A stretch of 64,000 nt of DNA from Vermamoeba vermiformis. Lineage: Eukaryota. Below, piece after piece: positions 870 through 63,978 of the stretch. Under the pieces are notes generated by a model that saw only the letters and a program-made list of their open reading frames with translations, was not told the origin of the DNA and did not search any database. The stretch spans positions 124,001-188,000 of the forward strand of contig JBEWZL010000300.1 of the NCBI GenBank assembly GCA_045837725.1, read 5' to 3'. The position numbers were made by a program, and so were the translations under genes. Every line of letters starts with the position of its first letter. Position 1 is the stretch's first letter.

Positions 870-3829
870 CATTTTATTTTTCGGGGTACTTATCAGTTAG
901 TGACATAATCTCTTCAGCACTTTTCTTTTCCTAAAATAGAAATGATCAGTACGTACTGGATCATGACAAAGATAATATGACGCGTTCAGTGAAACAATCG
1001 TTCATGAACTGCTATCCTAAATGTCAGGCACTTACCTTTGCAGCGGTTCGAACGTCATTTCGCAGATCGCAAAACTGTTGTACAATTGGTCGAGCGATAT
1101 TTTTGGTTTGTTCCGCTTGATCTTCTTCAGTGATCAGGCCGAATATTTTCAACATTTTTTCAACGTAAGATGATACTGATGTTAATAGCAATACTTTTCT
1201 ATCAGCATTGGTCAAGTAGACGTTGCTTTTGTTGATCAGATCCAGCAATGCCGTGATAACTCCGGGGGTGTCAAAATTGTCCAGTAATAGTTCATGAACC
1301 AGCCGTTGCGTCCTTCTTAATAAATCACTCAATTCTACATCCGTGGCGGTCCATTTTTGCGATTTTGATTGTTCGGATTTGTCCTACAAAAAATGTCAAA
1401 TTTTTGTGCTGACGATAAAATTGATGCAAAGATTGATTTTACCGTGGCAAGCGTATTGACTTTCGATAAAAATTCTAAGAAATATCTCTCGTTATTTCTA
1501 GCCTTATCCAAGCTGTCTTTTCGGAAATTGAACGATTTGTTCCATTGCTGCGTCAAGAACAACATTCTAATTTGAAACGGTGTAAATTCACCCAAAATCT
1601 CTTTGATCGTGATAAAATTCTTCAACGACTTTGACATCTACGAAAAGAATTACTAAATTAGGAAAGTGGTCACAAAAATTTCGATATCGTACGGACCTTT
1701 AATCCCTCAATGTTCAAGTGGCCAGTGTGCAAGAAGTAATTGACCCATTGGTGCGTGCCAAAATACGCTTCAGATTGCGCGAGCTCATTATCGTGGTGAG
1801 GGAATCTCAAGTCCTGCGCACGACGAAGGATTAGTACAATGAAACATTATAGTCAATGCAAGATAATAATATTATTGTACGGCTTACCTCGCCTCCTGAA
1901 TGAATGTCAACGGTCTTTCCTAATATGGTAGAAGCCATCGCACTGCATTCAATGTGCCAACCTAAAAGTACGTTAGGCACGTGACTAAATCACTGCAATT
2001 TATGACACGTGTCAATTGTAAGTATCCTCTTGGCTTCCACTTCCAAACTTCTGACACTTTGACACGTGTCAAATAATCTTTTTTAAACGTACCAGGTCGT
2101 CCGTAACCAAAGACGGTGTTCCAACCAGGCTCTCCGGGCTTCGATTTCTTCCACAGAGCAAAGTCGATTGGACTGCGCTTGTCGTGCTCTGGCACATCTT
2201 TCATCAAGACTCCCTGAAAAAGTGTCAGATCCGATCACTCACAGAACTTTTTTATTTGAATGGCTAACTTACTTCGCCGTCTTGATGAAGTTTTCTATTT
2301 CCGATTGACCATGGCTCTAGCTTGCCATAAAAGTGGTGGTTGTCTGGCGGGTTGGCGTGGACAAGTGACGGGTCAAACTTGCCTGTGTTGAAGTACACGG
2401 ATCCATTCGATTGATAACTTGAAGTTGAATTAAATGCTATTCTAAGTACAATATGTTTCTATACTTACGCGTATCCGTTGTCTATAATCTTTGACACCAT
2501 TTGTACGACTTCATCGATGTAATCTGAGACACGTGTCAAAACGTCAGGTGATTTGACATTAAGCACGTTCATTTCATTGAAAAAATCTGTCTCGAACTTG
2601 CTCGCGTGTTCTCGGATCTAAAAATAGCCGTTATTATTGATAAGTGTTTCATGAACGGCACGAAATTTCATTGTAACATACCGCCTCGCGCATCGTATCG
2701 CTGGATAATGAGGGTCCGTACAAGGCGTCTACATATTCTACGAGTGGATCATATGCGAATTGAACAGGATCTGGAAATGTCTTATTCAATTCTTCGATTG
2801 TTTTGGAACTAATGGCGTTTAATTTTTCCTACCCGAAGAAACGTCAAAAATCAGATCCGGCTCTTTTCGACTAGAATAAAATGTATGATGAGATTACCTT
2901 TGCAGATGATTGCTTCGTAATGGCAATATTTAAATCAGCTTCTAATTCTTTTTTGTTTATTTTGCCGGTGCTGTGTTTAATATCTTCCTGCTTGACACGA
3001 CACAAATTAATCTTTAATAACAGAAAAATTGAATAAATTTTGAATTGGAATTACCTGCAAAACACCCAATTTCTTATCCTTGTCTTTAATATAATATTCT
3101 AAGGCTTTCTTAATGTCGTTCAAGATCTCGTCGTCCCAACCCGTCTGTGACTTTCGTTTTTCAGTGAACTGTTTCATCAAATAATTTCTTCGTGCACGAA
3201 CAATAATCTTATCGTCCACATCGGTAATATTCATCACGAAAAATACTGCAGTAGAATCGATGTTAGTAAAAATATCGATTCGGACTTGACGGTTCAGCCA
3301 AAGCATTAAATTTATTTCCGCAACGGCCGTATTGTATATTAGGATGACGATTATTATAAATAAATTAATTAGAGTTCTTACCTTCATAATTAAAATAATC
3401 TTCCAAAATTCTTCGGATAATATCGAACGTGATGTAAGTCCTGGAAATAATATATCAATAAGTCATAGTAATAATCGTAAATGCGTACATTGCATGACCT
3501 AAATGAGCGGAGTCGTAAACGGTTGGCCCGCAGATGTACCATTTGACCAGACGTCCTTCTTGAGGTATAAATGGCTCAAGCTTACTCGTTAAGCTATTAT
3601 ATACTTTTAAGCCTATGATAATCGAGTATAAAACGGTTAGTAGAGAATTTCAGACCGCGGATCCAGCTCGCCACGTGCAATATTATTTCAAATTTACAAA
3701 AAATCAGAATAATTATTGAAATATCGGGCTGTATATTATATACTCACCGACATCAACTCCGCCGCTCGGTTGAACCCAGGGAGGCTGTTCTAATTTTTTC
3801 TTTGGATCAGCCGTGGTAAGGATCGACAT
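870..3829 (-). CDS. CARS1: Cysteinyl-tRNA synthetase, multi-exon; 3' end uncertain (~720-880)
   Basis: Spliced exons give [85 protein letters not shown] at 3829 ([21 protein letters not shown]). Confidence 0.95.
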
Positions 3830-4169
3830 TTGATTGCTCTGGACGATCTACCACTCGATCACTGTATAAGCAAAAAGAATGTACACTTCGCCGCGAGTTC
3901 AATCGTGGTATCTGGTCAAGTTGCGAATTTTGGAAGAACATAATGTTGGAAAAAATCTTGTAGTCACTCATTGCTCGATTCCCATGGCTCACATGGCCAG
4001 AGCCCGTCGATATGCCTCTAGCGGCTTTTCAATTTTTAATTGACCTTCTCGTTAGATCTGGGTACATTTGCTCCGACAATTTTCTCAAGGTCGCTACAGC
4101 TCTCCCAAAACTTTCGCCCTGCGCTTGAAAGAGTAGCTATTTGAACAAGGCTAGTGCAGGACGCTGATC

Positions 4170-4535
4170 GGGAGGGCGCCCAATTGCAGTGCTACTTCGC
4201 TTTGTACGAGAGGACCAGCATGCCAAGTAGTCGCATCTGGGGCATCCTGCAGCGTAGACAGCGAGACGGTGGGGTTGGTAGCACCAATCCGCTAAGAAGT
4301 GCGTAACAGCAATTACAAGGCAGACAGAGTCGCCAGTAGCGTCGGACCCGAAAAGCTATGATAGCTTAGTTTGAACCAGCTGAAGCCGTGCGGCGGATGT
4401 GGTTCATTCTCAACTTGTCGGGTATTCAGATTCGAATGACTCTGTCTGCTGAAGTGCATACTTGCCGAGTTGCAGGACTCCCCGGATGCGATAGAGCAAC
4501 TTAACCACTTGATGCGATCGCCCTCCTTATTTTTT
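4170..4535 (+). ncRNA. Putative structured non-coding RNA of unknown family (~360 nt; may extend 5' to ~4089)
   Basis: GC-rich ORF-free island with nested helices: 4171-4178/4519-4526, 4231-4242/4480-4491, 4245-4253/4469-4477, 4320-4331/4438-4449, 4346-4355/4414-4423, 4372-4378/4400-4406. G-U wobbles favour the + strand; the terminal helix is followed by TTATTTTTTG. Confidence 0.75.
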
Positions 4536-4888
4536 GCTTTTGTAGCGGCCGGATCGCGAGTACGTGTAGTCAGCGTCTATTACTAAACAAAACTATTTAT
4601 TCCGCAAAAATTCGACGCAAGATCGTTGAGAATCTTGCTAACTTGCTATTCTTTTTGTGGTAGCGGATCCCACGCCAAGAAAGTTCGGTCAAAGGCAGGC
4701 CTTGCTTTTAAAGGTTGCTTCGAAGGACGCTAGACCAAAGAATCAGTCACTAAATCTGACGAGCAAAATACAAATAAAATAGTCATAATATTATTTTATT
4801 AAATCTCAAATACAGAAATTAATAATAACAATACTATGACTGTAGACTACTGTTATATAGGCTTAATCCTTAATCAAATTAAAGGTCC

Positions 4889-7019
<2,131 letters not shown>

Positions 7020-7623: not shown

Positions 7624-9865
7624 ATGCAAACCGAAATCCTACCGATAAAAGAAGATCGAGCTAATCCTGGCCAAGGACCAACCTCGCCAGAAAAAGAAAA
7701 TAAATCCCCGAGAAAAGGCTCTGCAAAGGGTCATACTGCATTGGCAAAAAGTATGCCCGTCAAGCACAAAGCTCCAGCGGAAGATGAGTCAAATCCAAAA
7801 CAATCGCAGCGAAGCCCTATTCAAGACAGTCAAGATACAAATATTAGGAAAACAGTTATTGTAAAGAAGGAGCGAAAAAAGCAAAAGTAAGTCTTAAAGT
7901 TACTTCACGATTTTCCAAAATTATTGTCGGCCTCGAGACGCCTCTGTATGAAATTAAAGCATAGTTCCTGTATTAAAATAATACGTTTGAATTACGTCTT
8001 AATAATTGGATTTCTTCTACAGCGAGAAAGCTGCCGCTGAGGATTTCTTGAAGGGCATCAGCTTTGGCGATCCTAAGAAAGAGCTGCCGAAGAAGGTAAG
8101 CTACTTAAACTATGTATGATTGTCATGCATATGAGATTGAATCATTCGCGAATCTTTGATGCTAGATCTCCTTCTTTATTTTTGCCTAACTCGTCGCGTG
8201 CTCAGGTCAAAAAGCCTGCCGCTCCCGTACAGCCTCTTTACCAATCAGCTCATATCGAGAAAGAGGTCGTTATTCCTACAACCACACCTTTAGCAACTTC
8301 TCTAGGGCAATCGTTTGTATCCGCTCCTGCTGCTGAGGAGCTGATCGTCGAAGAGAGACCAATGCCAGTCATTGAAGAGGTGCATGATGACGAGGAGCAA
8401 CAAGCAAAGAAGAAACCTTCCACGAAGAAGAAGTTAGTAATAAAGGGAGCCAACCTGAAGAAGTACGTGGCCTTGCTGATATCGGAGTTTTGCTAACCCT
8501 TTTACAAAAATAGATACAAAAGCAAGTTGGTCAATTCTACGATGTACTTCACTTCTTCACATCAAAGCTACCCTATTGTATCGTCGCTCATCGTTACTTC
8601 CGACGCCAAGCTCGCCACACCTGCCCGAACAACTAGCTTTGAGAGGCAGTCGTTTTCACGTGAGAGGTCGTCTACACTAGAAGACATTACACGGCCACAA
8701 TTGAAGACATCGACTGCAGTAGTCAAGAAGCCATCAAAGGGCACAGCTTATGGTTATCTATTGCCTTTGTAAGCAAGCTCAGCCTCGTTAATTCTGCCAC
8801 TTCTAACTCTGCTTCAGGCACGAGGAATACAACCCGCACTTGTTGGACAACTCCTTTGTATTGCCTGGCAAACAGCGAATGGTTATTAACCTGCCTGGAT
8901 TCAGGGTAAGCGCAAGTAACACCGTTCATCGGTTACCGAACTGGCGGGACCAGAAAAAAGTTGAAACGGCGTTCAACAATCCGACATGGTGTAGGGGTTC
9001 AGCATATCCGCCTGTCACGCGGGTGACCCGGGTTCGATTCCCGGTGTTGGAGATTTCTTTTTTACTTTTTGGATTTTCCTTCGCTCACGCCTCTCTGCCT
9101 CCCGCTACGCTCTTCGAACGAATAGCGTTGCATTTTTTTTTCTTCACGCATCCATTCGACGGTTGACTGACCTTCTCTTTCAGGAATCGTTTTTCCCGTT
9201 TGTTAAGGCTGCACATCTCGAAGAAGAGTTGGACAGCGAGTTTAAAGAGAAGCACCCTTGGCTCAAGACAAACATCACTCTCAACGATATACGGAAGATG
9301 AAGAGAAGGTTGTTTGAAGTGTCCCTCAGCGTTGTAAGTACTCAGCCTCACGTGCCCTCTGAAAGTCCCACTAATGTTATCTAATCTTTAGTCACTCGAT
9401 GTTAGCACTACAGCGCTGTCGTACGTCTATTTTGAGCGCTTAATCGTTAAGGTACCTTAGCGTGCTTTTTGCAAATCATCTATTCGTATTTTGACTCAAC
9501 TAACGTCCGGTTAGAATCTCGTTACGAAGAACAATATGAAGTCTTATGCAGCAGCTTGCCTACTCCTAGCGGCCAAATTCAACAATCCAAGAGAGTTCGC
9601 TAAGCGGGTGTTTGAAGCTATCGACCGGACGTTTGTGCCTGCACGCGATGTTACGAGCGTCGAGTTTATTGTTTACAAAGATCTGGCGTTCAAGTTAATG
9701 GCGGATATGTCAGATGTCGAGCCGCACTTACAGCAGCTACAGGCTAGTCAAGATTATCAAGATCACTTGTTCGAGTACCAAGCGAGAAGAAGGAAAGGAT
9801 CCGTGCGAGATAGTATTTATGGCGAGTTACCTAATACAGGCAAACAAGCCGCAAACTCACAGTAG
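7624..9865 (+). CDS. CABLES-like cyclin-box protein, multi-exon
   Basis: Low-complexity N-terminus, then [79 protein letters not shown], which matches the recalled CABLES C-terminal cyclin fold. Confidence 0.8.
8980..9052 (+). tRNA. trnD: tRNA-Asp(GUC), inside an intron of the CABLES-like gene
   Basis: Cloverleaf TCCGACA...TGTTGGAG, anticodon loop CTGTCAC, GGTTCGATTCC T-arm, downstream T-run terminator. Confidence 0.97.
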
Positions 9866-13986: not shown

Positions 13987-15616
13987 TTACATTATAATGT
14001 TAAGAAGCATCGCTGCAACAACGGTGACTGCACCCAACAGTTGTGCTGCATCGCTCGCCTTCGAAGAGGTGGGAGTCTTAGTTGGAGCAGCAATCATGTT
14101 GCAAGTATAGCCATCGCCTTCATAGCCTGCGTTACATGCGCAGTCCGCGTAGCCAGGGTAAGAAGTGCACTTGGCATTGGAGTCACATGGATTGAGATCC
14201 GTTTGACAGATGTCAACGGAGAACGCAAACGTATCGCGGTGTTGGTCAGGCGAGATATAATCAAACGTGCCACGAACGATCCATAGACTGCCCATAGATT
14301 GACCTGCAAGGTCACCACGTGTTCCAGGGTAATTACTTGCATCAGCTTGATGAAATTTACCGTACTGAGGGGGTGTTATGGCACTATCGTTGAGAGTGCC
14401 CGAGATGAACTTCCATTCGTTGGATGTCATGTTGAAGGTGAACAAGAGATCGGAGTAGAAGACAGTAGGGACATTGGTCCAGCCACACCAGTACAAAAAA
14501 ATATTATTGCCAACGTATGCCATCGTGCCTGCAAGAGAGGCAGGAGGTTGAACTTGACCTTCAGTAAGCGTGGCATTTTGATTGGTACCGTTGCCGCTGA
14601 CCCACATCCATTGCAATGTCGATGGTCTGAAGCGCCATAGTTCGTTGCTCAAAGCATACCCAGGAAGATTACCACCATGGAACCTAAGAATAAAACCGGA
14701 TCAGGATCGACCTAATTTTTTGAGGTACGAATAGAGTTTATTAACAAATAAAAGTAGCTCGGTACTTACCAGACATCACCAGTAAGATCTATTGCGAAAT
14801 TAGCGGCCCAAGCTGGAGGACAGGTGACTTGATCGTCTGAGTACCAGGTGCCTTGTGCAATGCCGTCAGTACGAGGAACGTTTACTTCCTTGGTACCGGC
14901 GATCCAAGTCCACACGCCACTAGCGATACTATACTTCCATACATCACTGCGCCACTTGATGTTGGAACCAGCAAGGATCCAAAGCTCGTTGGATTTGAAA
15001 TCCGTCCAAGTAACCGCTCCAGAATTTTCACCGGGAAAAGTAACGTTATATTCACCAGCACCTTTAGTACCCCATTCGGCTGGCATTGGTTCGTGAATGA
15101 GTTTCCATTGACGAGAGCTGGTGTTGAACATCCAGAGATCCGTAAAGTAAGTGATCCAATAATCGTTAGTGCCGCCAGTCATCCATAAATTGTCGTCGCG
15201 ATCTACCCAAATGAGGGAGTTTTTGCGAGAAGGAGGTCTGTAGTCAGGTCCTTCCATGCCACGTTGTGGAGGGTAATTTCCTGTATCGTTGGTCGGCCAA
15301 CTTTGAATTTCAGACCAAGTGTAGTTATTTCTAACATCGAGTTTCCAAACATGATTGTAGTGAGCGGATTCATAGTCTTTTAAAATTAATTAATAAAATT
15401 TAAATTTGGCCGTTACAAAATAATAATCGGTTCTAGCATACCGTATTTGCTACCACCAAAGAGCCAAATATTGCCTTTCGAGTCTTGAACTTGAGCTTGA
15501 TATGCAAGATCAGGCATAGCACCGTTTGGACCTTCGATCCAAGTGGCCAAGTATTCAGAGCCTGCTACCAAAGTAGCGAAAAGAAGAAATAGAGGTATAA
15601 TCACTTTGGTGGTCAT
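13987..15616 (-). CDS. Secreted Kelch/galactose-oxidase-like beta-propeller + EGF-like protein with GPI-type tail, copy A (3 exons)
   Basis: Signal peptide MTTKVIIPLFLLFATLVAG; repeats D..GN.WLFGG / W.Y......WTW..G; CQTDLNPCDSNAKC...CACNAGYEGDGYTC; hydrophobic C-terminus. Confidence 0.85.
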
Positions 15617-15658
15617 TTTTAGTTGCGCAGCAAAGAATGATTCAGTTTTGGGAATAAA

Positions 15659-17621
15659 CTGTTCAACGGTTGGATGCCAAAAAAAGCAATCTCAAACACG
15701 GGAGATTGCGCGGGCAAAGTTTTAAATTAGTGTTCACGATAGTTAACATCAAAGGACAAATGGTTGAAATTTATGCTTGTAATAACGTACAACTTTACTT
15801 GGCTGATCAAATAAGGCTGATCATTACGGCAATAATGGTAACGAATGCACCCAACAGACGTGCTGCGTCGCTCGCCTTCGCAGAGGTGGGAGTCTTAGTT
15901 GGAACAGGAATCATGTTGCAAGTATAGCCATCACCTTCATAGCCTGCGTTACATGCGCAGTCCGCGTACCCGATGCGAGCAGTGCACTTGGCGTTTGAAC
16001 CACAGGGATTGAGATCAGTTTGACAGATGTTGACTGAGAACACAAACGTGTCGCGATGTTGGTCAGGCGAGACATAATCAAACGTGCCACGAACAATCCA
16101 TAGACTGCCCATAGATTGACCTGCAATGTCGCCACGAGTTCCAGGGTAATTGCTTGCATCAGCTTGATGAAATTTACCGTACTGAGGGGGCGTTATGGCA
16201 CTTTCGTTGAGAGTGCCCGAGATAAACTGCCATTCGTTGGATGTCATGTTGAAGGCGAACAAGAGATCCATGTAGTTGCTAGGATTTACATTGGTCCAGC
16301 CACACCAGTACAGAAGAATATTGTTGCCAACGTATGCCATCGTGCCTGCAAGAGAGGCAGGAGGTTGAACTTGACCTTCGGTCACTGAGGTACTTTGACC
16401 GGTGCCGTTGCCGCTGACCCACATCCACTGCAGTGTCGATGGTCTGAAGCGCCACAGCTCATTGCTGATGTAAAAACCGGGAATATTGCCACCGTGGAAC
16501 CTGTGCCATATTTAGGGTCAGATCAAGGCCAACAGTACACACTCGGAAGCAATACGCGCATAAGTTGCACTTACCATACATCGCCACTGCGGTCAATTGC
16601 ACCAGAGGGTGCCCAAACTGGAGGACGGTTGACTTGATCATCGGAGTACCAGACACCTTTTTGTACGTTATCATAGCTACGAGGAACGTCTACTTCCTTG
16701 GGTCCAGCCATCCAAGTCCACACGCCACTAGCGATATTATACTTCCAAACGTCACTGCGCCACTTTGCGTTGCCACCAGACAGGAACCAAAGCTCGTTGG
16801 ATTCGAAATCCGTCCATGTAACGGCTCCGGAAATATCGCCGGGAAAAGTAACGTTATATTCACCAGCACCTTTAGTACCCCATTCGGCTGGCATTGGTTC
16901 GTGAATGAGTTTCCATTGACGAGAGCTGGTGTTGAACATCCAGAGATCCGTAATGTAAGTGATCCAATAATCGTTAGTGCCGCCAGTCATCCATAAATTG
17001 TCATCGCGATCGACCCAAATGAGCGAATTTTTGCGAGAAGGAGGTCTGTAGTCAGGTCCTTCCATGCCGCGTTGTGGAGGATAATTTCCTGTGTCGTTGG
17101 TCGGCCAACTTTGAATTTCAGACCAAGTGTAGTTATTTCTAACATCGAGTTTCCAAACGTGGTTGTAGTGAGCGGATACGTAGTCTTAAAATTTTATATT
17201 TAAAATAAACATTTGGCCGTTACAAAATTATTTTTGGTTCTAGCCTACCGTATTTGCTACCGCCAAAGAGCCAAATATTGCCTTTAGAGTCTTGAACTTG
17301 AGCTTGATTTGCAAGATCAGGCATAGCACCGTTTGGACCTTCGATCCAAGTCGCCAAGTATTCTGATCCTGCTACCAAAGTAGCGAAAAGAAGAAATAGG
17401 GGTATAACCGCTTTGATGGTCATATTTAGTTGCGCGACAAACAAGTAATTCAGTTTTCGGCAACAAACCTGTTCAACGGTTGGATGCCAAAAAAAGCAAT
17501 CTCAAACACGGGAGATTGCGCGGGCAAAGTTTGAGTTTTAAGTTCAACGACAGTTAGCATCAAAGGACAAATCATATAATGCTTGAAATTTATGCTTGTA
17601 ATAACGAACAACTTTGGCTGA
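15659..17621. repeat. Near-identical intergenic spacers of the tandem array (about 15659-15806 and 17468-17621)
   Basis: Shared CTGTTCAACGGTTGGATGCCAAAAAAAGCAATCTCAAACACGGGAGATTGCGCGGGCAAAGTTT...GAAATTTATGCTTGTAATAACG. Confidence 0.9.
15807..17423 (-). CDS. Kelch-like propeller + EGF-like GPI-type protein, copy B
   Basis: Tandem paralog with the same exon structure as copy A. Confidence 0.85.
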
Positions 17622-19299
17622 TCAAATAAGGCTGATCATTACCGCCATAACGCTCGCGATTGTGAATGCACCCAGCAGTTGTGCTGCATCGCTCGTTTGC
17701 GAAGACGAAGGGGAGGAAGAAGAGGCAGGAGTCCTAGAGTCATTTGGAGCATTTGGCGAAGCAACTACGTTGCAAGTATAACCATCACCTTGATAGCCTG
17801 CGTTACATGCGCAATCCGCGTAGCCAGGGTAAGAAGTGCACTTGGCGTTTGAATCGCAGGGATTGAGATCAGTTTGACAGATGTCAACTGAGAACACAAA
17901 AGTGTCGCGGTGTTGATCAGGCGTGTACCAATCAAACGAGCCACGAACGATCCACAGACTGCCCATTGAGATTGAACTGAACTCGCCACGTGTTCCAGGG
18001 TAATTACTTGCATCAGCTTGATGAAATTTGCCGTACTGCGGGGGCATGTAAGTTTCGTTGAGAGTGCCCGAGATAAACTTCCATTCGTTGGATGTCATGT
18101 TGAAGGTGAACAAATTGTCTGAGTACCAGTTTGCTTGGTAGGAGTAGCCGGGCCAGTACAAAAGAATGCCGTTTCCCACATAGGCCATCGTACCTGAGTC
18201 AGCGCCCGCGGGCTGAACATGACCTTCCGCGAGATTGATATGTTGGTTCGTACCGTTGCCACTGACCCACATCCATTGCAATGTTGAAGGTTTGAAGCGC
18301 CATAGTTCGTTGCTTAAAGGATACCCAGGAAGATTACCACCGTGGAACCTAAGAATAAAACCGGATCAGGATCGACTATTTTTTGAGGTACGAATAGAGT
18401 ATATTTAACAAATAATAGTAGCTCGGTACTTACCAGATATCGCCAGTAGGATCTACAGCGAAATTAGCGGCCCAAACTGGAGGACAATTGACTTGATCCT
18501 CTGAGTACCAGGTGCCTTGTGCAATGCCGTCAGTACCAGGGACATTAGGCTCTTTAGGTCCAGCCATCCAAGTCCACACACCACTAGCAATATTATACTT
18601 CCATACGTCGCTACGCCATAGTAGATTGCCACCAGCAATGGACCAAAGCTCGTTGGATTTGAAATCCGTCCAAGTTACCGCTCCGTTGTTTTCGCCGGGG
18701 AATGTCACGTTATATTCACCAACGCCTTTGGTACCCCATTCGGCTGGTATTGATTCATGAATGAGTTTCCATTGAAGAGACGTAGTGTTGAACATCCAGA
18801 AATCCGATTGGAAGTCCAGCCAGTTGTTCGAGGCACCGCCGTAAATCCAAAGATTATCTTCTTTGTCCATCCAGGTCAATGCGGCGTAGCGCGCTGATGG
18901 TCTGTAGTCAGGTCCTTCCATCCCACGTTGCGACGGGTATTTTCCGGTGTCGTTCACTGGCCAGGTTTGAATTGCTGACCAAGTGTAGTTATTTCTAACA
19001 TCGAGTTTCCAAACATGATTGTATTGTTCAGATACGTAATCTGTATAGTTAATTGATTAGTTTTTGGTAAATGGATGGCGCTGCCGGTGTGCACTTGTAA
19101 ACGGAAAACGAAGGTTTAACTTACCGTTTTTGCAGCCGCCAAAGAGCCAAATATTGCCTTTCGAGTCTTGAATCTGCGATTGAAAAGCTAGATCTGGCAT
19201 TTCGCCGTTTGGCCCCTCGATCCAGGTGGCCAAATAATCGGATCCTGCGGCCAGAGCAACGTAGAGCAACCATACTGATACGACAACCTTTGTGTTCAT
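17622..19299 (-). CDS. Kelch-like propeller + EGF-like GPI-type protein, copy C (most diverged 5' half)
   Basis: Tandem paralog with the same exon structure. Confidence 0.85.
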
Positions 19300-32044: not shown

Positions 32045-35000
32045 TTAAACGTTGCGGAACTTGGGCTCGCATCTGTTCGGAATTTTAGCGATCAGAGAAT
32101 CCGGCAAGAAGTCAGCTTCAAACTGCGCGCCTTGACGGAACACATTGAGGCCTTCGATGCCTTCAGACCACGTCTTGTTCGGTCCAGCAATGACGATGAC
32201 AATGTAGTAAGTGATCGCTTCTTGCGTCCACTTTTCCTCGGGGTTCTTGTACGTCAAGCAGCCGTACGCCTTGCCCCATTTAGCAGGGATCTTCGTCTTG
32301 ACCATCACGTCGCGGAACTTGTCGTACTCGAGGATTTCTTTGGCTTCGACGCGGACCTGCCAGTCTTCTTCGAGCTTGCACCAGAGCATGTGTTCGCGGT
32401 GAGATCTGAAGTAAGCGTGGAGTTCTTTCAACGGCACGGGCTCAGCGTGGTTCTCACCAAACGTGTCAGGCATCTTGGCGCCAGCAGGAACTTCGATGTC
32501 GAACGAACCCTCGGCCAAGGGGTAAGATGTCAAAGTGTCAATGTTGGTCGGGCCGTCTCGGCGGTTTTGATGCGTGACAAATTGGTCAAAGATGTTGTAA
32601 TGGAGCGACATTTCGACCTTGTGAGTGCCAGCACCAGCGCGAAGGAGGTAGCCGTAGAGCAGTCTGGGCATCAAGTCCCAGCCAGTGTAGAACGATTCAG
32701 GGGTCATGGGCAAGCCAAGAATCTCAAAACCAACGGTCTGTTGCGTGTAGTACATGTTGTTGTTGCCGTGGAAGTATCCGAAGCTGTCTTGGAACGCGTA
32801 CTTTCTGTGCACGGGCTTGCCGTCAATCTTGAGCTGCAGCGACATGATCAACGAAGGCGCGAGGTAGTTCTTGTCCATCAGACCGTCGACGGGGTACACA
32901 GGAGTGCCGTCCTTCTTCTTGCCAATAGCGTAGTTGGCGATCGATCGAGGCCAAACAGCGCGTGCAAAGATCGGATCCGTCAAGCTGAACTTGGTCTTCA
33001 AGGCGTCCTTGTTCTTGATTTGAGGCTGGATAGTCTCGTTGGCAAAGACGATTTTGCCGGCAAGAGGCAAAGTGTACTCAGCGAGAATAGCGTCCTTCGT
33101 GCTATCAGGTCTGTTGGCGAAAGGAAGACCGCTTTGAGCAGGGGTGCCAGGACGAACCATCTCGTAGTCAGGAATGCCGACGTCTTCTTCAGAAGGCTGC
33201 CACAAGTCAGTGGGAGCAGAGGGCGTGGGCCATTCAGGCTCGAACTCGGGCTTCCAATTCTCCATCGAGTAGCGGAAGTAGCTGTTCCAAATCTTCTGCA
33301 AACGGCGGATAGCTGCACGGTGCGCAACAGGCCACTTCTCGAGCTGTTTAAGACCGCTGACAATGTGCTCTTGCTTGTGAATAGGCACCTTGCTGTCGAC
33401 TTTCTGAACCATGCCTTCAATGATCTCAAGAATCATGACCACCTTGCCCAAGTGCATTTGTTCCTTGATCAACTTGTCAATCTTTTCTTGGAACGGCGGG
33501 ATGTAGGGGAACTTCACGTTGAGCGAGTGCCATTCAGAAGCGACTTCATCGACGAAACCCAAGATGTTGTCGCGCATGGGTCGCTCTGCCTCGTGTGCAA
33601 TGCGGTGGTGCAAAAGACTGGCCTTAGACAAGACACCAACAAATTGCGAGACCACTTCGTTGCGTTTGTCGTTCTCTTCGATCTGAGCACGAGCTGTCTT
33701 AAGTTGTTCGAGCATGGTGTTCTTCAGATCATCAGCCGGCAGCTCGTTGACTTGCTTCTCCATCTTCTCAACCAAAGAAAGAGTGTGGGCCCACTTGCCG
33801 TAGATGTACGAAGGAGCGTTGTAGCCGCCCGTGTTAGTCGAAGTGGGCACAACTTCAGCGACCTTGGCCACGCGAATCAACTCGTTGACAGACTTCTTCC
33901 ACTCGCCGTTGATCGTCAAGATGTTAGTGTTCCATTGAATGACGAAACTGCGGGTCTGGGCAGGGGTGGAGGACTGGGCTTGAACGTTGGACAACGGGGA
34001 GTTCATGTGAATAACCCAAGGACCAAGCGTGGATTGAATAGGACCGCTGGGGAAGCCAGGAGCATTGGGAACTAATAAGAAATGTTGAATTAGAATCGGA
34101 TTCGAAAGCTATAATTGACGTGGATAATTACCTGACGACTTGACAACAGGAGTAAGAGGTGTCTCATCAGCGCTGGACTCAGCACCGGCAGCAGCTTTAC
34201 TGCCCATGGCAGCAGTGATCGTGCTCTCAAGGGTTGTAAGAGCAGCGCGAGTCTCGGTCACGTAGGTCTTGACGAGGGGCAAAGTGTTGTAAGGCGGGTT
34301 CTCGAGCTCGGAGAGGCTTTCGTAGGCCTTGGTCAAAGCGTCCAAAGCCTCTTGGTGGCGCGAGTGTTCGGCCAGGTTCTTAGCGTTGGTGACGTGAGTC
34401 TTGCCAGCATAAACCTTGTCGTAGACGACTCTGCCGAACATAGCTTCACCGACCTTAGCTTCCAAGCTATCAAGGGTGGGGTTGGTCTCCTTCAAGAAGG
34501 CGATGGTGGCCGGGAGATTGTTGTAAGGAGATTCGTCGAGTTCAGCAATGGCCTCGCGGGTCTTGGCGATGGCGGTAAGAGCCTCGCTGTTACGGCTGTG
34601 GAAGTGCAAGTCGTTGGCGGTGGTCAAGTGGGTCTTGGCAGCACGGATCTTGTCTTCAACGACTCTGCCAAACAAGACTTCACCGATCTTGCCTTCGAGG
34701 GTGTCAAGAGCGGGCTTGGCGTCCTTCAAGTAGGCAACAGTAATGTCGAGAGTGCCAAAAGGAGGTTGTTCAAGCTCGGCAAAAGCGTCTCTGGCCTTGG
34801 CAACAGCAGTAAGAGCCTCTTCGTTTCTGGAATGGAAGTGCATGCTTTCAGCTTCAGTGACAAGTGTCTTGGCAGCACGGATCTTGTCGTCAGCAACACG
34901 ACCGAACATGGCTTCACCGCATTGACGCTCGTATTGATCAATTTGCTTCTCGAACTCGGGCAAGAATTCTTGAGTGGCCTTCAAGCTGCCATAAGGAGCC

Positions 35001-37936
35001 TCCTTCAACTCGGAGATGAGCTCGCGGGCCTTGGCAACAGCGTCGAGGGACTCTTGGTATCTGTTGTGGAAGTGCATGTCCTTGGCAGTAGTTCCAAAGG
35101 TCTTGGCAGCACGGATCTTCTCGTCAACGACTTTGCTGAAGAGAGCTTCACCGCATTGGCGTTCGTACTCGTCAATTTGCTTCTCAAACTCGGGCAAGAA
35201 CTCTTGAGTGGCCTTCAAGCTGCCGTAGGGAGTTTCCTTGAGTTCAGCGATGAGCTCGCGGGCCTTGGCGACGGCGTCAAGTGACTCTTGGTGGCGGCTG
35301 TGGAAGTGCATGTCCTTGGCAGTGGTTCCAAAGGTCTTAGCGGCACGGATCTTCTCGTCGACAACTCTGCTGAAGAGAGCTTCACCGCATTGGCGTTCGT
35401 ATTCATCAACTTGCTTGATGAACTCGGGAAGGAAGCCAGAAACGGCCTCCAAAGAGCTCCAAGGGGCTTCTTGCAATTCAGAGATGCTTTCGCGGGCCTT
35501 GGCAACAGCGTCGAGGGCCTCTTGGTAGCGGCTGTGATAGTGCATGTCCTTGGCAGTAGTTCCGTGAGTCTTGGCAGCGCGAATCTTGTCATCAGCAAGA
35601 CGGGAGAACATTTCTTCACCGCACTTGGTTTCGATGTCGTCGATTTGCTTGGCGAATTCGTTGAGGAAGGTCTTGACAACGTCCAAGGTGACGTAAGGGG
35701 GTTGAGCAAGCTCGCTCATCTGTTCGCGAGCCTTGGCGACAGCTTCAAGTGCCTCGTCGTAACGGTTGTGGAAGTGCATGTCCTTGGCCTTGGTGCCATG
35801 GCTCTTGGCCTCGCGGATCTTGTCGTCAGCAAGGCGAGAGAACATAGCCTCACCGCACTGCTTCTCGTACTCGTCGATTTGTTTCTCGAAGGCAGGCAAG
35901 AACTCTTGAGTGGCTTTCATGTTGCCATAAGGAGCGTCCTTCAACTCGGCGATGAGTTCGCGGGCCTTGGCAACAGCTTCAAGAGCTTCTTGGTATCTGT
36001 TGTGATAGTGCATGTCCTTGGCAGTAGTTCCAAAGGTCTTGGCAGCACGAATCTTCTCGTCGACAACTCTTCCGAACATTTCTTCACCGCACTTGGCTTC
36101 GATATCAGTAATGTTCTTTTCGAACTCGGGCAAGAACTCGAGAACGCTCTGGAAGGTAGCGTAGGGAGGGTTGGACAGCTCAGCGATGAGCTCGCGGGCC
36201 TTAGCAACGGCGTCGAGTGATTCTTGGTATCTGTTGTGATAGTGCATGTCCTTGGCAGTGGTTCCAAAGGTCTTGGCTTCACGGATCTTGTCGTCGACCA
36301 AACGGCTGTACATGGCTTCACCGCATTGACGTTCATAGTCATCAATTTGCTTAGTGAATGCGGGCAAGAACTCAGCAACAGCAGGGAAAGTGTTGAACGG
36401 AGCATTGGACAACTCGGCGATACTTTCACGGGCCTTGGCAACTGCTTCAAGAGCTTCTTGGTAACGGCTGTGATAGTGCATGTCCTTGGCCTTGGTACCA
36501 TGTGACTTGGCCTCGCGGATCTTGTCATCGACAAGGCGACCGTACATTTCCTCACCACACTTCTTCTCGATGTCGTCGATTTGAGTGATGAAGGCCGGCA
36601 AGAACTCTGTGACCGCCTTGAAAGCGCTGAAGGTAGATTGAAGCTCGGCAATAGATTCACGGGCCTTGGAAACAGCGTCGAGGGATTCTTGGTATCTGTT
36701 GTGGAAGTGCATGTCCTTGGCCTTGGTACCGTGGCTCTTGGCTTCGCGGATCTTCTCGTCAACGACGCGACCCAACATGGCTTCACCGCAAAGTCGTTCG
36801 TACTCGTCGATCTGCTTGATGAATTCAGGCAAGAAGGCGGTGACGGCAGGGAAAGTGTTGAACGGAGCGGCAGACAGTTCGTTGATGCTGTCACGAGCCT
36901 TGGCAACGGCGTCAAGTGACTCTTGATATCTGTTGTGATAGTGCATGTCCTTGGCCTTGGTGCCGTGAGACTTGGCCTCGCGGATCTTGTCGTCAACAAT
37001 ACGACCGTACATAGATTCGCCACACTTCTTCTCGATATCGTCGATTTGGGCAATGAAGGCAGGCAAGAACTCGACAACGGTCTTGAAAGCTCCAAAAGTG
37101 GATTGAAGTTCGGCGATGCTTTCACGGGCCTTGGCTACAGCGTCGAGCGACTCTTGATATCTGTTGTGGAAGTGCATGTCCTTGGCCTTGGTGCCGTGGC
37201 TCTTGGCTTCACGGACTTTTTCGTCGACCACTTTACCAAGCATGGCCTCGCCAACCTTGGCTTCAATGTCGTCGATTTGCTTAATGAAGTCGGGGAGGAA
37301 GGCAGTGACTGACGAGTGAGTGTTGTACGGGGCTTCGGAGAGCAAGGCAATGCTTTCGCGGGCCTTGGTAACAGCGTCGAGCGACTCTTGGTATCTGTTG
37401 TGGAAGTGCATGTCCTTGGCCTTAGTACCGTGGCTCTTGGCTTCACGGACCTTATCATCAACGACGCGACCCATCATAGAGTCAGAAATCTTCTTCTCGA
37501 GAGTGTCGATCTGCGCGCGGGATTCGTTGAGGAATGTTTTTACTGCTTCGGCGAAGTTGTATGGAGCGATATCCAAGGCAATCAAACCGGCGCGGGCCTT
37601 TTCCAATGATTCGGAAGCTTCAGCGTATCGGTTATGGAAGTGCATTTGAGTGGCGTTGGCGAGCGGAGTTTTGACGTTGGAATACAAGCCATCCAAAACT
37701 TTCTTGACGAAGGCGCTAGCATCAGCTTCGAGCTTCTTGATTTCATTCTTTGCGGAAGTGACGAATTGTTGAGTCTTGGCAAAGGTAGCAGGAACAATCT
37801 TCATCAGACTTTCCTTTTCAAAAGCAACAACCGCATCTCGAAGTTTAATGACTTCTTCGAGCTGTGAGTTGGCCTCTTCGAAGCTTTTATATTCACGCTT
37901 TTTGAGCGAAGCAAGCAATCCTTCAAGAGCTTCCAT
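32045..37936 (-). CDS. ~1,940-aa protein: 15 tandem 76-78-aa helical repeats + globular C-terminal region; intron 34072-34130
   Basis: ORFs 34109-37936 and 32045-34006 join in frame (VKSS-VPNAPGFP...VIHMNSP) across a GT-AG intron; strong codon bias. Confidence 0.9.
34230..37700 (-). repeat. Coding tandem repeat, 15 units of ~228-234 nt
   Basis: Unit consensus VVDEKIREAKSHGTKAKDMHFHNRYQESLDAVAKARESIAEL..APY.T..AV.EFLPEF.KQIDEYERQCGEAMFGR. Confidence 0.95.
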
Positions 37937-55274: not shown

Positions 55275-58169
55275 CTAGTTGACGGCAGACTGTAGTACAG
55301 TTCGCTTTTGTTCGTCAACTTTCAGCGCGTCCCTAAATTAAACAAGTCAATTAGTATTGTATAAGATGCAGCTGTATATAGAGTTAACAATGGCCCAAAA
55401 AGCAGCTTCGTATCGGCAAAGAGCATAGGTCGTAGGATAAGACCGGATCTGGTACATACCTTTGAATATGCTTGATAGTTAGAGCCATGCCGTCAGTCTT
55501 CGAAGACCAATTGTTCATCATCGAATCAAAGTTATGAATGGAATCAACAATCGAGATCTTGAGAGGTCGCGCGTTCTCTATCAATCTGAGCCCAATGAAG
55601 TAGACTACTGAGAAGGGGTAGTTGGTCTGACTGCTCTTGAACGGTGTCACGAACGGAGTTATTCTTAAATCTCTATTCTGTTCTAAAGTCGCGACTAAGT
55701 TCACTATTCTGGATTCGATCCAGCCGGACCACAACGCAAAATCTTCAAACGTGATTGCGGAGATTGTCATCTGAATGAAGCTCGTATTCGTCGTAAAGAA
55801 GGTCTTGTCTTCTCCAAGCAATACGTTCCAATCCACGACCTCCTTATTCTCCTTGCATTTCTCCAGATAAAAATAGCTCGACTTCAATTGTTCCTGGACC
55901 AAAGTAGAGGTCGCTCGAGTAGCGTTACGAGTAATATTTCGATATGGCTTGCTCGGAGTAAGTATCGGCAACCATTCTTTGTCTCTTGCCTAATTTAGAC
56001 AATTACATATTAAGTAATCACGGGGCAAATCTCGGATATTTGATAAATTTTAGTTGTGACAATAAAATTAACGTACTTTCGGCCCTCCTTGAGTCTTGTA
56101 AGGGATTGGACTATCCGTGATGATTGATACACTGTTAGTGAGCCAACTCCAACGTGAGTACAACTCAAAGAAATGAAATATCAAGTCTTCAGGAGTTGCA
56201 TCTGGATGTAGCTGACAAACTCGCGTGACCATGACGTTAACGGATATTCCGCCAAGATAGCCCATAATACTCGAGTAAATATGCTTTTCTACGAGCGATT
56301 AGCTTTTTCAAACGCTCTTTGTACTTACTTTTGGCCCACTGTCTAATAACGTGCGCAACGAGCCGGAATTTTTCGATGTTTGGAATGTACTTGAGAAGGA
56401 CTTCTGTATCTTTAATGCCTATAATACGCATATTAGATGCATATACAGCGATAATTGATGCGTACCAGAAAGACTAGCAACACTTTGTTTGTCCATCCTG
56501 CGCATCTGAACTTCGTCAATGGAGAGAATGTCTGACGGTGATTTAATCAGTTGCGGATTAACTCCGACATAGAGGAGGTCAACCTGTATTCATTAGTATC
56601 AATATTATATGTACTCTTGCAATAGTATTCGTACCTTGACGCCGATAACATCCAACTTCAAGATCGGTACAACAGCATCTTCAATTCGCTACAATAGAAC
56701 CAATGAGATAAATAAGGCTAAGGCCATCAATCGATCACTTACACGAAGAACTTTAATGTCTTTGACTTTAGGAGTAAACTCTTGAATGGTGAGGAAGAAC
56801 TCTTGTTGCGACATGACGCTCAAGCACAAGATGTCAATGTCTGTTGATGGCGAGACCACACCGAGTCGGTACGAGCCTAACGTTAATAGTTTGAACTCCT
56901 CCTACAACAACAGTTAGGGCAGTGTTTTCTAATCAAGCAAACGTACCTCTTTGAAAAAATCGTTCAAATTGGTCTCAAGGACTTGAATAGCTCTCTCGCG
57001 CTTCTTCATTCCTTCTTCGCTTTCGAGAACGTTGATGTTTTGTAAGTAATCTGCCAGTTTGGCGGAATACAACTTGTCACTTTCTGCAGGCTGTTTTGGT
57101 GCTTCTTCTGCAGGCTTAACTTCGACTACCTGCTTCACGTCTTCGTTGGTATTATTGAGTGTCTTTTGTTCTTTAGTTTCTCGATCGAATGACATGTTGC
57201 AAATGAGTCCAAAGTGATCTGAAGGGAATAATTTCACCGTCTCTCCACCGCTCGTGAACTCGAACGACTCTTTGCCGATCATATCAATCGAGTCATATTT
57301 CCAACACTCCGCTAGTGATCTAACATAAATACGGTCGTATCTTCTTTGTCTTGAAGCTGCTCCTGGTGTATCAGTGTAATTGATTGTTGGATCGAAAGTG
57401 AAGCCTGGATCTGTTGGCTTGACTTGCTTCCAAACGTCTTGAAAATCAGGGCTAATTTCACCTTCTTCTTCTGGCTTATTTAGATTGAAGTCTCCGATCA
57501 TAAAGCAATCCACATCTGGAAATAGTTTAGCGCGTGTCAACCTCGTCGAGATCTCGTGTTCTTACTTGTATTATCTTTAGGGCACGTCTTTTCATATACA
57601 ACTTTGAGCTGATATGACCTCTTAGAGCCAGTATCGAGCTTGAATTTCGATTTGTCGCTGGTCAAGTGCAAGACAGGCACAAACACGGTCCTGCCATTCA
57701 ATGCGAATTCGCCAACTATTACTCGCTTGAACTTAGAGAACCTATTTCGAGGTCAATATTAATGCTGCAATGGATATATCACTTACTTCAAGGTAATGAG
57801 CTTAAATGGAAACTTGGAGAGCAACAACTGACCGTACGGATTCACTGTTGTGCCTTGGATAGAATCGGAAACGTAATAATTATTTTTTACCCAGTCTTCT
57901 CTTAATAATTGTATCAAAAAGCTTTGTGTCACTTCTTGAAGGCCGATAATATCTGCATTCGAATTTTGTAATATTTCTATTAATTTTGTAATGCGAGCGT
58001 TGCTTTGTTCTTTGCTTTTTTCGAACGTTGAAAATAATACGTTGTAAGTTAAAATTGATAATCTATCAATTTGTTGGTTCGCAAACGTGCTTCGTTGGTC
58101 GATCGAGATCCAATTATTTTCCTCGCCACTAAACTTGTAAGTTGGAAGCGAAGAGAAAAACTTGTCCAT
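55275..58169 (-). CDS. EEP (TDP2-like endonuclease/exonuclease/phosphatase) fused to a canonical-type poly(A) polymerase
   Basis: ILTYNVLF, DIIGLQEV, HLTS, IGDFN, RYDRIYV, PSDHFG (EEP); GSYRLGVVSPSTDIDIL, DAVVPILKL, IRQWAK, GYLGG, MPILTPSKPYRNITRN, WSGWIESRI (PAP). Confidence 0.9.
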
Positions 58170-63518: not shown

Positions 63519-63601
63519 TCCGACCTGCCGGAATCGAACCAGCGACCTAAGGATTGATGCTTCACTACAGTCCTCCGCTCTACCGACTGAGCTAAGGTCG
63601 G
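63519..63601 (-). tRNA. trnY: tRNA-Tyr(GUA) with a ~10-nt tRNA intron
   Basis: CCGACCTTAGCTCAGTCGGTAGAGCGGAGGACTGTAG[TGAAGCATCA]ATCCTTAGGTCGCTGGTTCGATTCCGGCAGGTCGGA, then a T-run. Confidence 0.97.
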
Positions 63602-63905: not shown

Positions 63906-63978
63906 CTCCAACACCGGGAATCGAACCCGGGTCACCCGCGTGACAGGCGGATATGCTGAACCCCTACACCATGTCGGA
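63906..63978 (-). tRNA. trnD: tRNA-Asp(GUC), identical to the copy at 8980-9052
   Basis: Exact reverse complement of 8980-9052; T-run terminator. Confidence 0.97.

Follow-up and report, generated by a model that had tools for sequence, protein, structure and literature searches.

A 64-kb stretch of Vermamoeba vermiformis DNA (64,000 nucleotides, called the window throughout) carries a small RNA gene, at about 4170-4535 of the plus strand, that combines two modules resembling separate parts of large-subunit (LSU) ribosomal RNA. One is a hairpin like the sarcin-ricin loop (SRL, helix 95 or H95), and the other is a domain like the GTPase-associated center (GAC, helices H42-H44). Both lie within this one gene, which is flanked by the genes for cysteinyl-tRNA synthetase (CysRS) and NADP isocitrate dehydrogenase (IDH), and the RNA is expressed as a separate transcript. 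Translational GTPases dock on the ribosome at a site to which the SRL and the GAC both contribute, with the GAC serving as the binding site of uL10/P0 and uL11. The interpretation given in an earlier, sequence-only reading of the hairpin is supported in part and extended here: the RNA is new, conserved and expressed, and it combines the two halves of the GTPase center of the ribosome. The gene has an orthologue on a metagenome contig (L001), and the coordinates of its parts are collected in Table 1.

The hairpin, CTACTTCGCTTTGTACGAGAGGACCAGCATGCCAAGTAG (4192-4230, plus strand), has exactly the CTACTT...AAGTAG sequence described in a sequence-only reading of this DNA, and 13 of its consecutive bases are identical to H95 of E. 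coli K-12 23S rRNA. That reading counted 14 of 15 matches to the bacterial SRL, and the count is borne out against the E. coli SRL oligonucleotide as given in PMC3496166: the oligonucleotide contains UAGUACGAGAGGACC and the loop in the window reads TTGTACGAGAGGACC. Measured over the universal 14-nt SRL, which includes the GAGA tetraloop and the bulged-G position, the agreement is 13 of 14 with the E. coli form (PMC3496166) and 12 of 14 with the AGUACGAGAGGAAC form in the text quoted from PMC4574749. The 13-mer GTACGAGAGGACC at 4204-4216 occurs once in the window and was matched exactly in none of 100 dinucleotide-preserving shuffles. With up to two mismatches, at least one match arose in 47 of the 100 shuffles, so only the near-exact match to the SRL carries weight. 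Literature searches for the 13-mer returned SRL oligonucleotides and primers only.

A covariance-model search (cmscan) of 4166-4240 placed 4199-4219 on the bacterial LSU model at positions 2676-2696. GCU/AGC falls on the closing pairs of the model, which agrees with the earlier proposal that these triplets close the loop. This was the sole match among 4227 Rfam families, and its score (4.3 bits, E 9.8) is weak because the alignment is short. The loop is closed by a Watson-Crick stem in which the outer 6 bp, CTACTT/AAGTAG, are kept both in a fold of the short segment and in the two-sequence consensus. Nearest-neighbor folding cannot score the non-canonical part of an SRL, with its G-bulged cross-strand stack. 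The loop is conserved in the one orthologous RNA, where all 39 positions of the hairpin are identical, and no variant is listed there in RNA-seq reads.

The immediate flanks of the hairpin are not H94 or H96, as the sequence-only reading had recognized, but a homologue of H42-H44, which it missed, starts 24 nt downstream of the motif. When a 401-nt query was compared with the 4227 families, 4240-4481 aligned to positions 1157-1251 of LSU_rRNA_archaea, covering helices 42-44, with 35.4 bits and an E value of 7e-9, and the metagenome contig gave an equivalent match of 36.7 bits. A 60-nt core (4255-4313) with H43 and a locally closed H44 hairpin reached 31.5 bits alone (model positions 1172-1230, E 1.8e-8). 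The structure-aware alignments reproduce the three-helix H42/H43/H44 arrangement together with the H43 and H44 loops, and the core shares 43 of 67 aligned bases with positions 1030-1102 of E. coli 23S rRNA. The archaeal LSU model scores best for this module, above the bacterial one; the GAC core is presumably nearer to eukaryotic cytosolic than to bacterial rRNA, which would fit this result. The earlier assignment of the loop to a bacterial or organellar form is therefore weakly founded, given the archaeal preference of the GAC and an SRL that lies one position of 14 from the E. coli form and two from the other form compared (PMC4574749).

Within the small RNA the two modules follow an order opposite to that in rRNA. 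In the ribosome itself they are neighbors and are described as cooperating (PMC4574749; PMC2330231). The arm that is inserted at the H44/H42 junction showed no likeness to rRNA in the Rfam search. A 7-nt direct repeat (4296-4302 and 4451-4457) flanks this arm and may be a trace of its insertion into the H44 region.

Both LSU-like pieces (35.4 and 4.3 bits) score below the gathering threshold of 50. At the gathering score, the whole window yielded three tRNAs only and no LSU match, and the 1.2 kb at 3600-4800 yielded nothing relevant and no LSU match at E values up to 10; the GAC match surfaced only in the 401-nt query. That query, searched at E values up to 10, gave no match to 7SL, RNase P, RNase MRP, 7SK, U snRNAs, vault, Y or telomerase RNA, and neither did the metagenome sequence. 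The weak matches to HCV_SL1412, NPPA-AS1_3, sR51, HIV-1_DIS, Gl_U6, ACA59 and MEG8_1, all far short of the thresholds for those families, were set aside. Coding potential was likewise rejected after an open reading frame (ORF) survey, which found none above 53 aa on the plus strand of the small RNA gene and none above 87 aa on either strand of the CysRS-IDH intergenic stretch.

Since parts of the stretch align to LSU rRNA, it could be a functionless nuclear copy of mitochondrial DNA (NUMT), a ribosomal DNA (rDNA) pseudogene or an assembly chimera. We give this explanation almost no credence. No collinear alignment extends beyond the two local pieces, which are in reversed order with non-rRNA helices connecting them, and at E values up to 10 nothing else matched LSU rRNA. 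The scrambled module order, the absence of anything more that aligns to rRNA, and a nuclear, syntenic locus between intron-containing genes argue against a NUMT, endosymbiont rRNA or LSU rRNA gene. In addition, the gene occurs at the corresponding position of an independent metagenome contig, its conservation is far above that of the neighboring coding gene, and it is expressed as a discrete unit. The sequence-only reading had suggested a non-ribosomal RNA displaying an SRL, and that suggestion is supported and strengthened, since the hairpin belongs to an independently expressed, syntenic small RNA gene with a GAC module.

The metagenome contig preserves the order CysRS exon 1, small RNA, IDH 3' end, as in the window. 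Across 4170-4311 the two sequences are identical at 140 of 142 positions, compared with 70-73% identity for the CysRS gene, a contrast opposite to neutral decay relative to functional neighbors. The 330 nt upstream of 4170 are barely alignable. A 27-mer from the GAC module (4250-4276) was found in this one metagenome contig and in no prokaryote genome contig or viral contig. A search with the SRL-gap-GAC pattern, which recovers the metagenome contig as a control, returned none of the prokaryotic species genomes and no viral contig. There is also no second copy within the 64-kb window, and the metagenome locus is syntenic, as checked with a short interspersed element (SINE) or retro-pseudogene in mind.

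This pattern bears on a possible origin in which two pieces of rRNA, picked up for instance through template switching in retroposition, were exapted into a ribonucleoprotein (RNP) scaffold whose function has nothing to do with mimicry. The reversed modules, the direct repeat flanking the inserted arm and the changes at some universal rRNA positions would all suit such a history. However, the rRNA-like modules are the most conserved part (140/142) while the non-rRNA arm drifts (111/145), and the captured pieces would happen to be exactly the two halves of one functional site. We consider an origin of this kind, with a function of this kind, unlikely.

Expression was assessed from two RNA-seq runs, whose species label is that of the best-matching DNA data set, and from two contig sets. 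Another 16 runs contain part of the stretch, with shares up to 0.20 (0.47 in X3), and were left out of the count; those with small shares (X5, X7-X20) were taken as no evidence of habitat or expression. Read depth is about 40-190 over 4164-4539 in the two RNA-seq runs (up to 105.6 plus 82.2 in run X21), falling to 0 in 3882-4163 and to about 0-1 in 4540-4774, where one bin of run X23 reaches 4.5. The depth ends in the bin 4493-4539, and the IDH exon has a depth of about 10-38 in the two runs. In an estuary metatranscriptome (X6) there are four contigs, 105-220 nt long, of which two do not differ from the window; its contigs cover 4325-4445 and 4416-4520 with no other letters. Run X4 contributes an identical contig of 237 nt.

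Many read joints of the 'opposite strand' type connect 4189-4198 to 4225-4285, at inverted repeats around the SRL hairpin. We take these for snap-back cDNA artefacts; alternatively, they could mark a 5' end near 4190.

The RNA might instead be a true piece of the cytosolic or mitochondrial ribosome that is supplied in trans, encoded apart from the rDNA as 5S rRNA is, with an LSU rRNA that lacks these helices. Its rRNA-level conservation, the contigs from an RNA library (X6) and signals of the RNA polymerase III (pol III) type, which 5S rRNA genes have too, are compatible with this idea. Nevertheless, the ends of the RNA close on themselves and its modules are tied together by non-rRNA helices. 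Universal positions are changed, H43-loop positions vary between close variants, and read depth in the two runs is only a few times what an mRNA exon shows. We know of no case of such a ribosomal piece supplied in trans and judge the idea very improbable.

The putative promoter elements point to an snRNA-type gene. The TCCCAAAA box lies 59 nt upstream of the first conserved G in the window and in the metagenome contig alike, even though the spacer sequence has diverged. It is likened here to a proximal sequence element (PSE), an upstream sequence element (USE) or the upstream sequence element of Dictyostelium (DUSE). Motifs of this type are not enriched in the window (8 found, 9.5 expected), so the argument for the box lies in its conserved position. 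At the distance of the TATA-like box (near -30), the metagenome contig has a different A/T-rich octamer, and a longer T-run stands in the place corresponding to the T-rich end. A box near -60, a TATA-like element near -30 and a terminal T-run, at the same distances in both sequences, correspond to the snRNA-type (type 3) pol III layout, and the small RNA accordingly looks like the product of a gene of this type. In Dictyostelium, the DUSE motif, which the box fits, is reported about 60-63 nt upstream of small RNA genes, whether transcribed by pol II or pol III (PMC3188802; PMC7919456).

All three of these signals are on the plus strand, and a minus-strand transcript, which would be antisense to rRNA, is not favored. 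Moreover, on the minus strand about 13 G-U pairs of the consensus fold would turn into A-C. These signals and the G-U pairs lead us to infer plus-strand transcription; the fold z-scores of the whole RNA (-4.06 for the plus strand, -4.58 for the minus strand) do not discriminate between the two.

The predicted fold ties the two modules into one molecule. The 5' and 3' ends of the RNA pair to form a terminal stem, P1, and the consensus further contains P2, the SRL hairpin followed at once by an H42-like helix of 21 bp, the top of H42 with H43 and H44, and the inserted arm. The consensus for the window and the metagenome contig has 110 pairs and is kept through substitutions: three pairs show two-sided compensation, nine change on one side and none is broken. 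All three two-sided compensations of this comparison fall in the inserted arm, whereas 3 of the 21 pairs of the H42-like helix vary on one side yet remain paired. Variants in the reads lend the fold independent support. In the H42-like helix, 4249 G>A occurs with 4473 C>T, turning a GC pair into AU, and further support comes from the pairs 4323/4446, 4328/4441 and 4339/4433 and from several G-U to G-C changes. The structure of P2 is a prediction only, because its pairs are invariant. A pseudoknot between 4503-4508 and 4399-4404 was considered and is unsupported, as shared changes at 4403 and 4505 do not compensate.

Table 1. Features of the small RNA gene and its surroundings in the window, with identity to the orthologous metagenome contig (L001)
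Feature	Position	Strand	Identical in L001	Basis and remarks
CysRS gene	start near 3830	minus		Translation motifs; Pfam and source names of matches
Upstream box TCCCAAAA, PSE/USE/DUSE-like putative promoter element	4103-4110	+		Likeness to L001
Putative TATA-like A/T-rich box	4138-4145	+		About 25-33 nt before the RNA start; read from the sequence
Small RNA gene, about 362-366 nt	4170-4535	+		Conservation in L001, RNA-seq depth, no long ORF, fold
P1/P2 5' strands	4170-4191	+	22/22	
P1 5' strand	4170-4178	+		Pairs with 4519-4527; 9/9 pairs in both sequences, none varies
P2 5' strand	4183-4191	+		Pairs with 4506-4518, with a 4-nt bulge; pairs invariant
SRL-like hairpin	4192-4230	+	39/39	Outer stem CTACTT/AAGTAG; closing GCU/AGC 4199-4201/4217-4219; 15-nt loop 4202-4216
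5' strand of long H42-like helix	4231-4260	+	29/30	4231-4253 pairs with 4469-4491; H42 of the archaeal LSU model in cmscan
GAC core	4261-4311	+	50/51	H42 top 4261-4265/4461-4465; H43 4267-4291; H44 hairpin 4297-4311
Variable inserted arm at the H44/H42 junction	4312-4455	+	111/145 columns	Closed by 12-bp helix 4320-4331/4438-4449
3' strands of H44/H42-like helices	4456-4492	+	33/37	cmscan, consensus fold, L001 alignment
3' tail	4493-4530	+	35/38	
Conserved 3' tail	4493-4518	+		4493-4505 single-stranded, then P2 3' strand
P1 3' strand	4519-4527	+		Consensus fold
T-rich end TTATTTTTT, pol III terminator-like	4527-4535	+		T-run directly after the terminal stem
IDH gene	end near 4890	minus		Translation motifs; Pfam and source names of matches

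Taken together, these observations lead us to favor, tentatively and at slightly less than an even chance, a model in which the small RNA would be a free-standing mimic of the ribosomal factor-binding site. The model follows from the role of the two elements in the ribosome, where translational GTPases dock on the SRL and the GAC jointly. Mimicry of this site is the simplest reading because constraint peaks in the two modules and in the helices that would hold them next to each other, whereas the arm unlike rRNA is drifting.

In such a particle, the terminal stem would close the RNA and two arms would rise from the junction, one being the SRL hairpin and the other the adjoining long H42-like helix topped by H43/H44. 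The GAC module would load the stalk-base proteins, uL10/P0 with P1/P2 and uL11, and the SRL would be presented beside them. The particle could then bind translational GTPases off the ribosome, or other proteins that recognize the site, such as SRL-directed enzymes, and the RNA would act as a sponge or regulator. That an abundant small RNP rebuilds the GTPase center off the ribosome in this way, binding or triggering translational GTPases or baiting SRL-directed toxins, is a proposal we hold loosely, at a chance somewhat below even. Isolated SRL oligonucleotides are reported to bind EF-G and IF2 in vitro (PMC3496166).

Several observations weigh against this model. In the SRL itself, the first A of the 14-nt motif is replaced by U, a change at a near-universal rRNA position, and the single-sequence minimum free energy fold of the whole RNA has competing local pairing in the SRL region. 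The SRL hairpin is invariant and the GAC core hardly varies, so the folds of both are predicted from their likeness to rRNA. Two H43-loop positions depart from the model consensus, close variants in the reads carry 4277 G>A and 4280 A>G in the H43 loop, and the 145-nt arm, placed where H44 and H42 join, could perturb a compact GAC fold. The comparison covers two complete sequences, the consensus structure was derived from these very sequences, and the covariation is not significant, being reached in 55 of 500 shuffles. Among the read variants, two run counter to the fold: a double change at 4322/4447 puts C opposite A, and 4475 G>A, seen in some of the reads, disrupts a pair. Finally, the libraries are unstranded, with both mate directions covered, and the reads come from a diverged strain or species, whose IDH exon differs too. 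In run X21, 9 of 384 reads are at least 99% alike, and 293 of 384 lie only partly on the stretch, with the share running on unlike at 0.66. Most of this partial placement reflects a divergent hairpin that takes the place of 4358-4390, with loose ends at 4357, 4391 and 4394.

The same modules could serve other ends. In one alternative, which we regard as unlikely, the RNA would be a platform for ribosomal proteins without GTPases: the GAC would titrate, store or chaperone uL10/P0, uL11 and P1/P2, much as bacterial leaders that mimic rRNA control ribosomal proteins, and the SRL would bind its own neighboring proteins. The mimicry of rRNA by RNAs that bind ribosomal proteins is an established principle (as set out in PMC7247131), and the GAC core is the best-scoring and an almost invariant part of the RNA. 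This alternative leaves unexplained the invariant SRL, mainly a factor contact, that stands beside the GAC.

A further possibility, already raised in outline by the sequence-only reading, is that the RNA is a toxin decoy or sentinel. A spare SRL and a stalk-binding GAC would bait ribosome-inactivating N-glycosidases or sarcin-type ribotoxins from prey or competitors, thereby sparing ribosomes or signaling attack. It draws on the same SRL and GAC modules as the factor-site mimic, and the GAGA tetraloop, the bulged-G position and the closing stem that such toxins would meet are all retained. Stalk proteins are described as recruiting such toxins to the SRL (PMC8941211; PMC3280276), and the RNA is abundant enough for metatranscriptome assembly. 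On the other hand, a decoy presupposes exposure to toxins, for which there is no evidence in this organism, and it must compete with a large excess of ribosomes. The near-invariance of the whole 5' 142 nt also exceeds what a depurination substrate needs, and we rate this possibility as rather unlikely.

The locus is eukaryotic: the flanking CysRS and IDH genes both have short spliceosomal introns, and the intergenic stretch between them is the most G+C-rich part of the neighborhood. A search with the IDH exon gave environmental sequences at 97-99% and scattered matches from named sources at 77-85%, mostly 79-85%, and the CysRS C-terminus gave one match. Three further blocks near the gene are conserved in the metagenome contig. 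A block of about 60 nt at 4702-4759, downstream of the small RNA (about 1815-1875, minus, in L001), is near-identical in the two sequences. It lies beyond the read-covered part of the IDH 3' end (depth 0-0.15 in 4681-4774) and could be a regulatory element or a further small RNA. The IDH 3' untranslated region (UTR), at 4773-4860, contains long conserved A/T-rich blocks. The third, at 3918-3945, is a nearly identical 27-nt block. Relative to the CysRS start codon it stands about 90-115 nt upstream (minus strand), and relative to the small RNA about 230-250 nt upstream (plus strand); it could represent a promoter or 5' UTR element of CysRS, or else a distal element of the small RNA gene.

Elsewhere in the window, an ORF pair is repeated three times in tandem at 13987-19056 (minus strand), with a period of about 1.8 kb. 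In the pair that was scanned (17622-18365 and 18430-19056), the domains recognized are a Kelch/attractin-like beta-propeller and EGF_3. An open frame of 1275 aa at 34109-37936 (minus strand) has Pfam matches of the low-complexity type only, and long ORFs run on the opposite strand too. Pieces of a poly(A) polymerase gene, with PAP_RNA-bind and PAP_NTPase, lie at 55384-57561 (minus strand); a word-based protein search with the 201-aa piece found no relative. The tRNA genes are at 8980-9052, 63519-63601 and 63906-63978 and comprise two tRNA-Asp(GTC) and one 83-nt tRNA-Thr(AGT).

If the factor-site mimic reading is right, a natural, conserved and expressed RNA with an SRL and a GAC would represent a new class of regulatory RNA. 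Every translational GTPase needs these two elements, and to our knowledge they have been studied off the ribosome only with synthetic fragments. The small RNA would thus serve as a minimal system for GTPase recruitment and activation by the SRL and the GAC, and it could reveal a new layer of translational control or of anti-toxin defense in free-living microbial eukaryotes. The locus also shows that rRNA-like matches can point to genuine genes, not pseudogenes, even when they score far under the thresholds of their families. Full-text literature searches found no natural RNA with both an SRL and a GAC and no ribosome-mimicking non-coding RNA, within a coverage that did not extend to the supplements on dictyostelid non-coding RNAs, which might list DUSE-linked RNAs.

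Comparison with known systems places the RNA between several of them. With LSU H95 and H42-H44 it shares the sequence and predicted secondary structure of both modules. It differs from LSU rRNA in that one 360-nt RNA holds the modules in reversed order, with non-rRNA helices, a terminal stem and, where H44 meets H42, a 145-nt arm. It also departs from rRNA at several near-universal positions, and the gene stands between protein-coding genes rather than in rDNA.

The bacterial L10 leader imitates the L10 site of the GAC. Like the rRNA-mimicking leaders of ribosomal-protein mRNAs in general (PMC7247131), the small RNA would be a non-ribosomal RNA that imitates a protein-binding site of rRNA, but those leaders act in cis in bacterial and archaeal mRNAs and imitate one site, whereas here a stand-alone eukaryotic small RNA carries two. 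None of the Rfam leader families matched the small RNA region.

The [AT]CCCA[AT]AA box about 60 nt upstream and the T-run downstream resemble the DUSE-dependent small RNA genes of dictyostelids and snRNA-type pol III genes. No known member of that group has this sequence. The dictyostelid Class I RNAs are 42-65 nt long. A length of about 50-60 nt is given for them in the text of PMC3188802.

Closer in content are the synthetic 'ribosome-in-pieces' RNAs of Munishkin and Wool, the SRL and the thiostrepton-domain RNA (as cited in PMC3496166), since both of those pieces are present in the natural RNA described here. The constructs were made in the laboratory and used separately, whereas here a natural gene links the two. 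Finally, 6S RNA and other sequestering mimics offer a parallel in concept, in that an abundant structured RNA mimics a central machine's nucleic-acid target and could retain its partners. The target, the organism and the structure differ, and sequestration is in our case only proposed. Were the model to hold, the small RNA would be a natural 'ribosome-in-pieces' and the counterpart in translation of what 6S RNA is in transcription.

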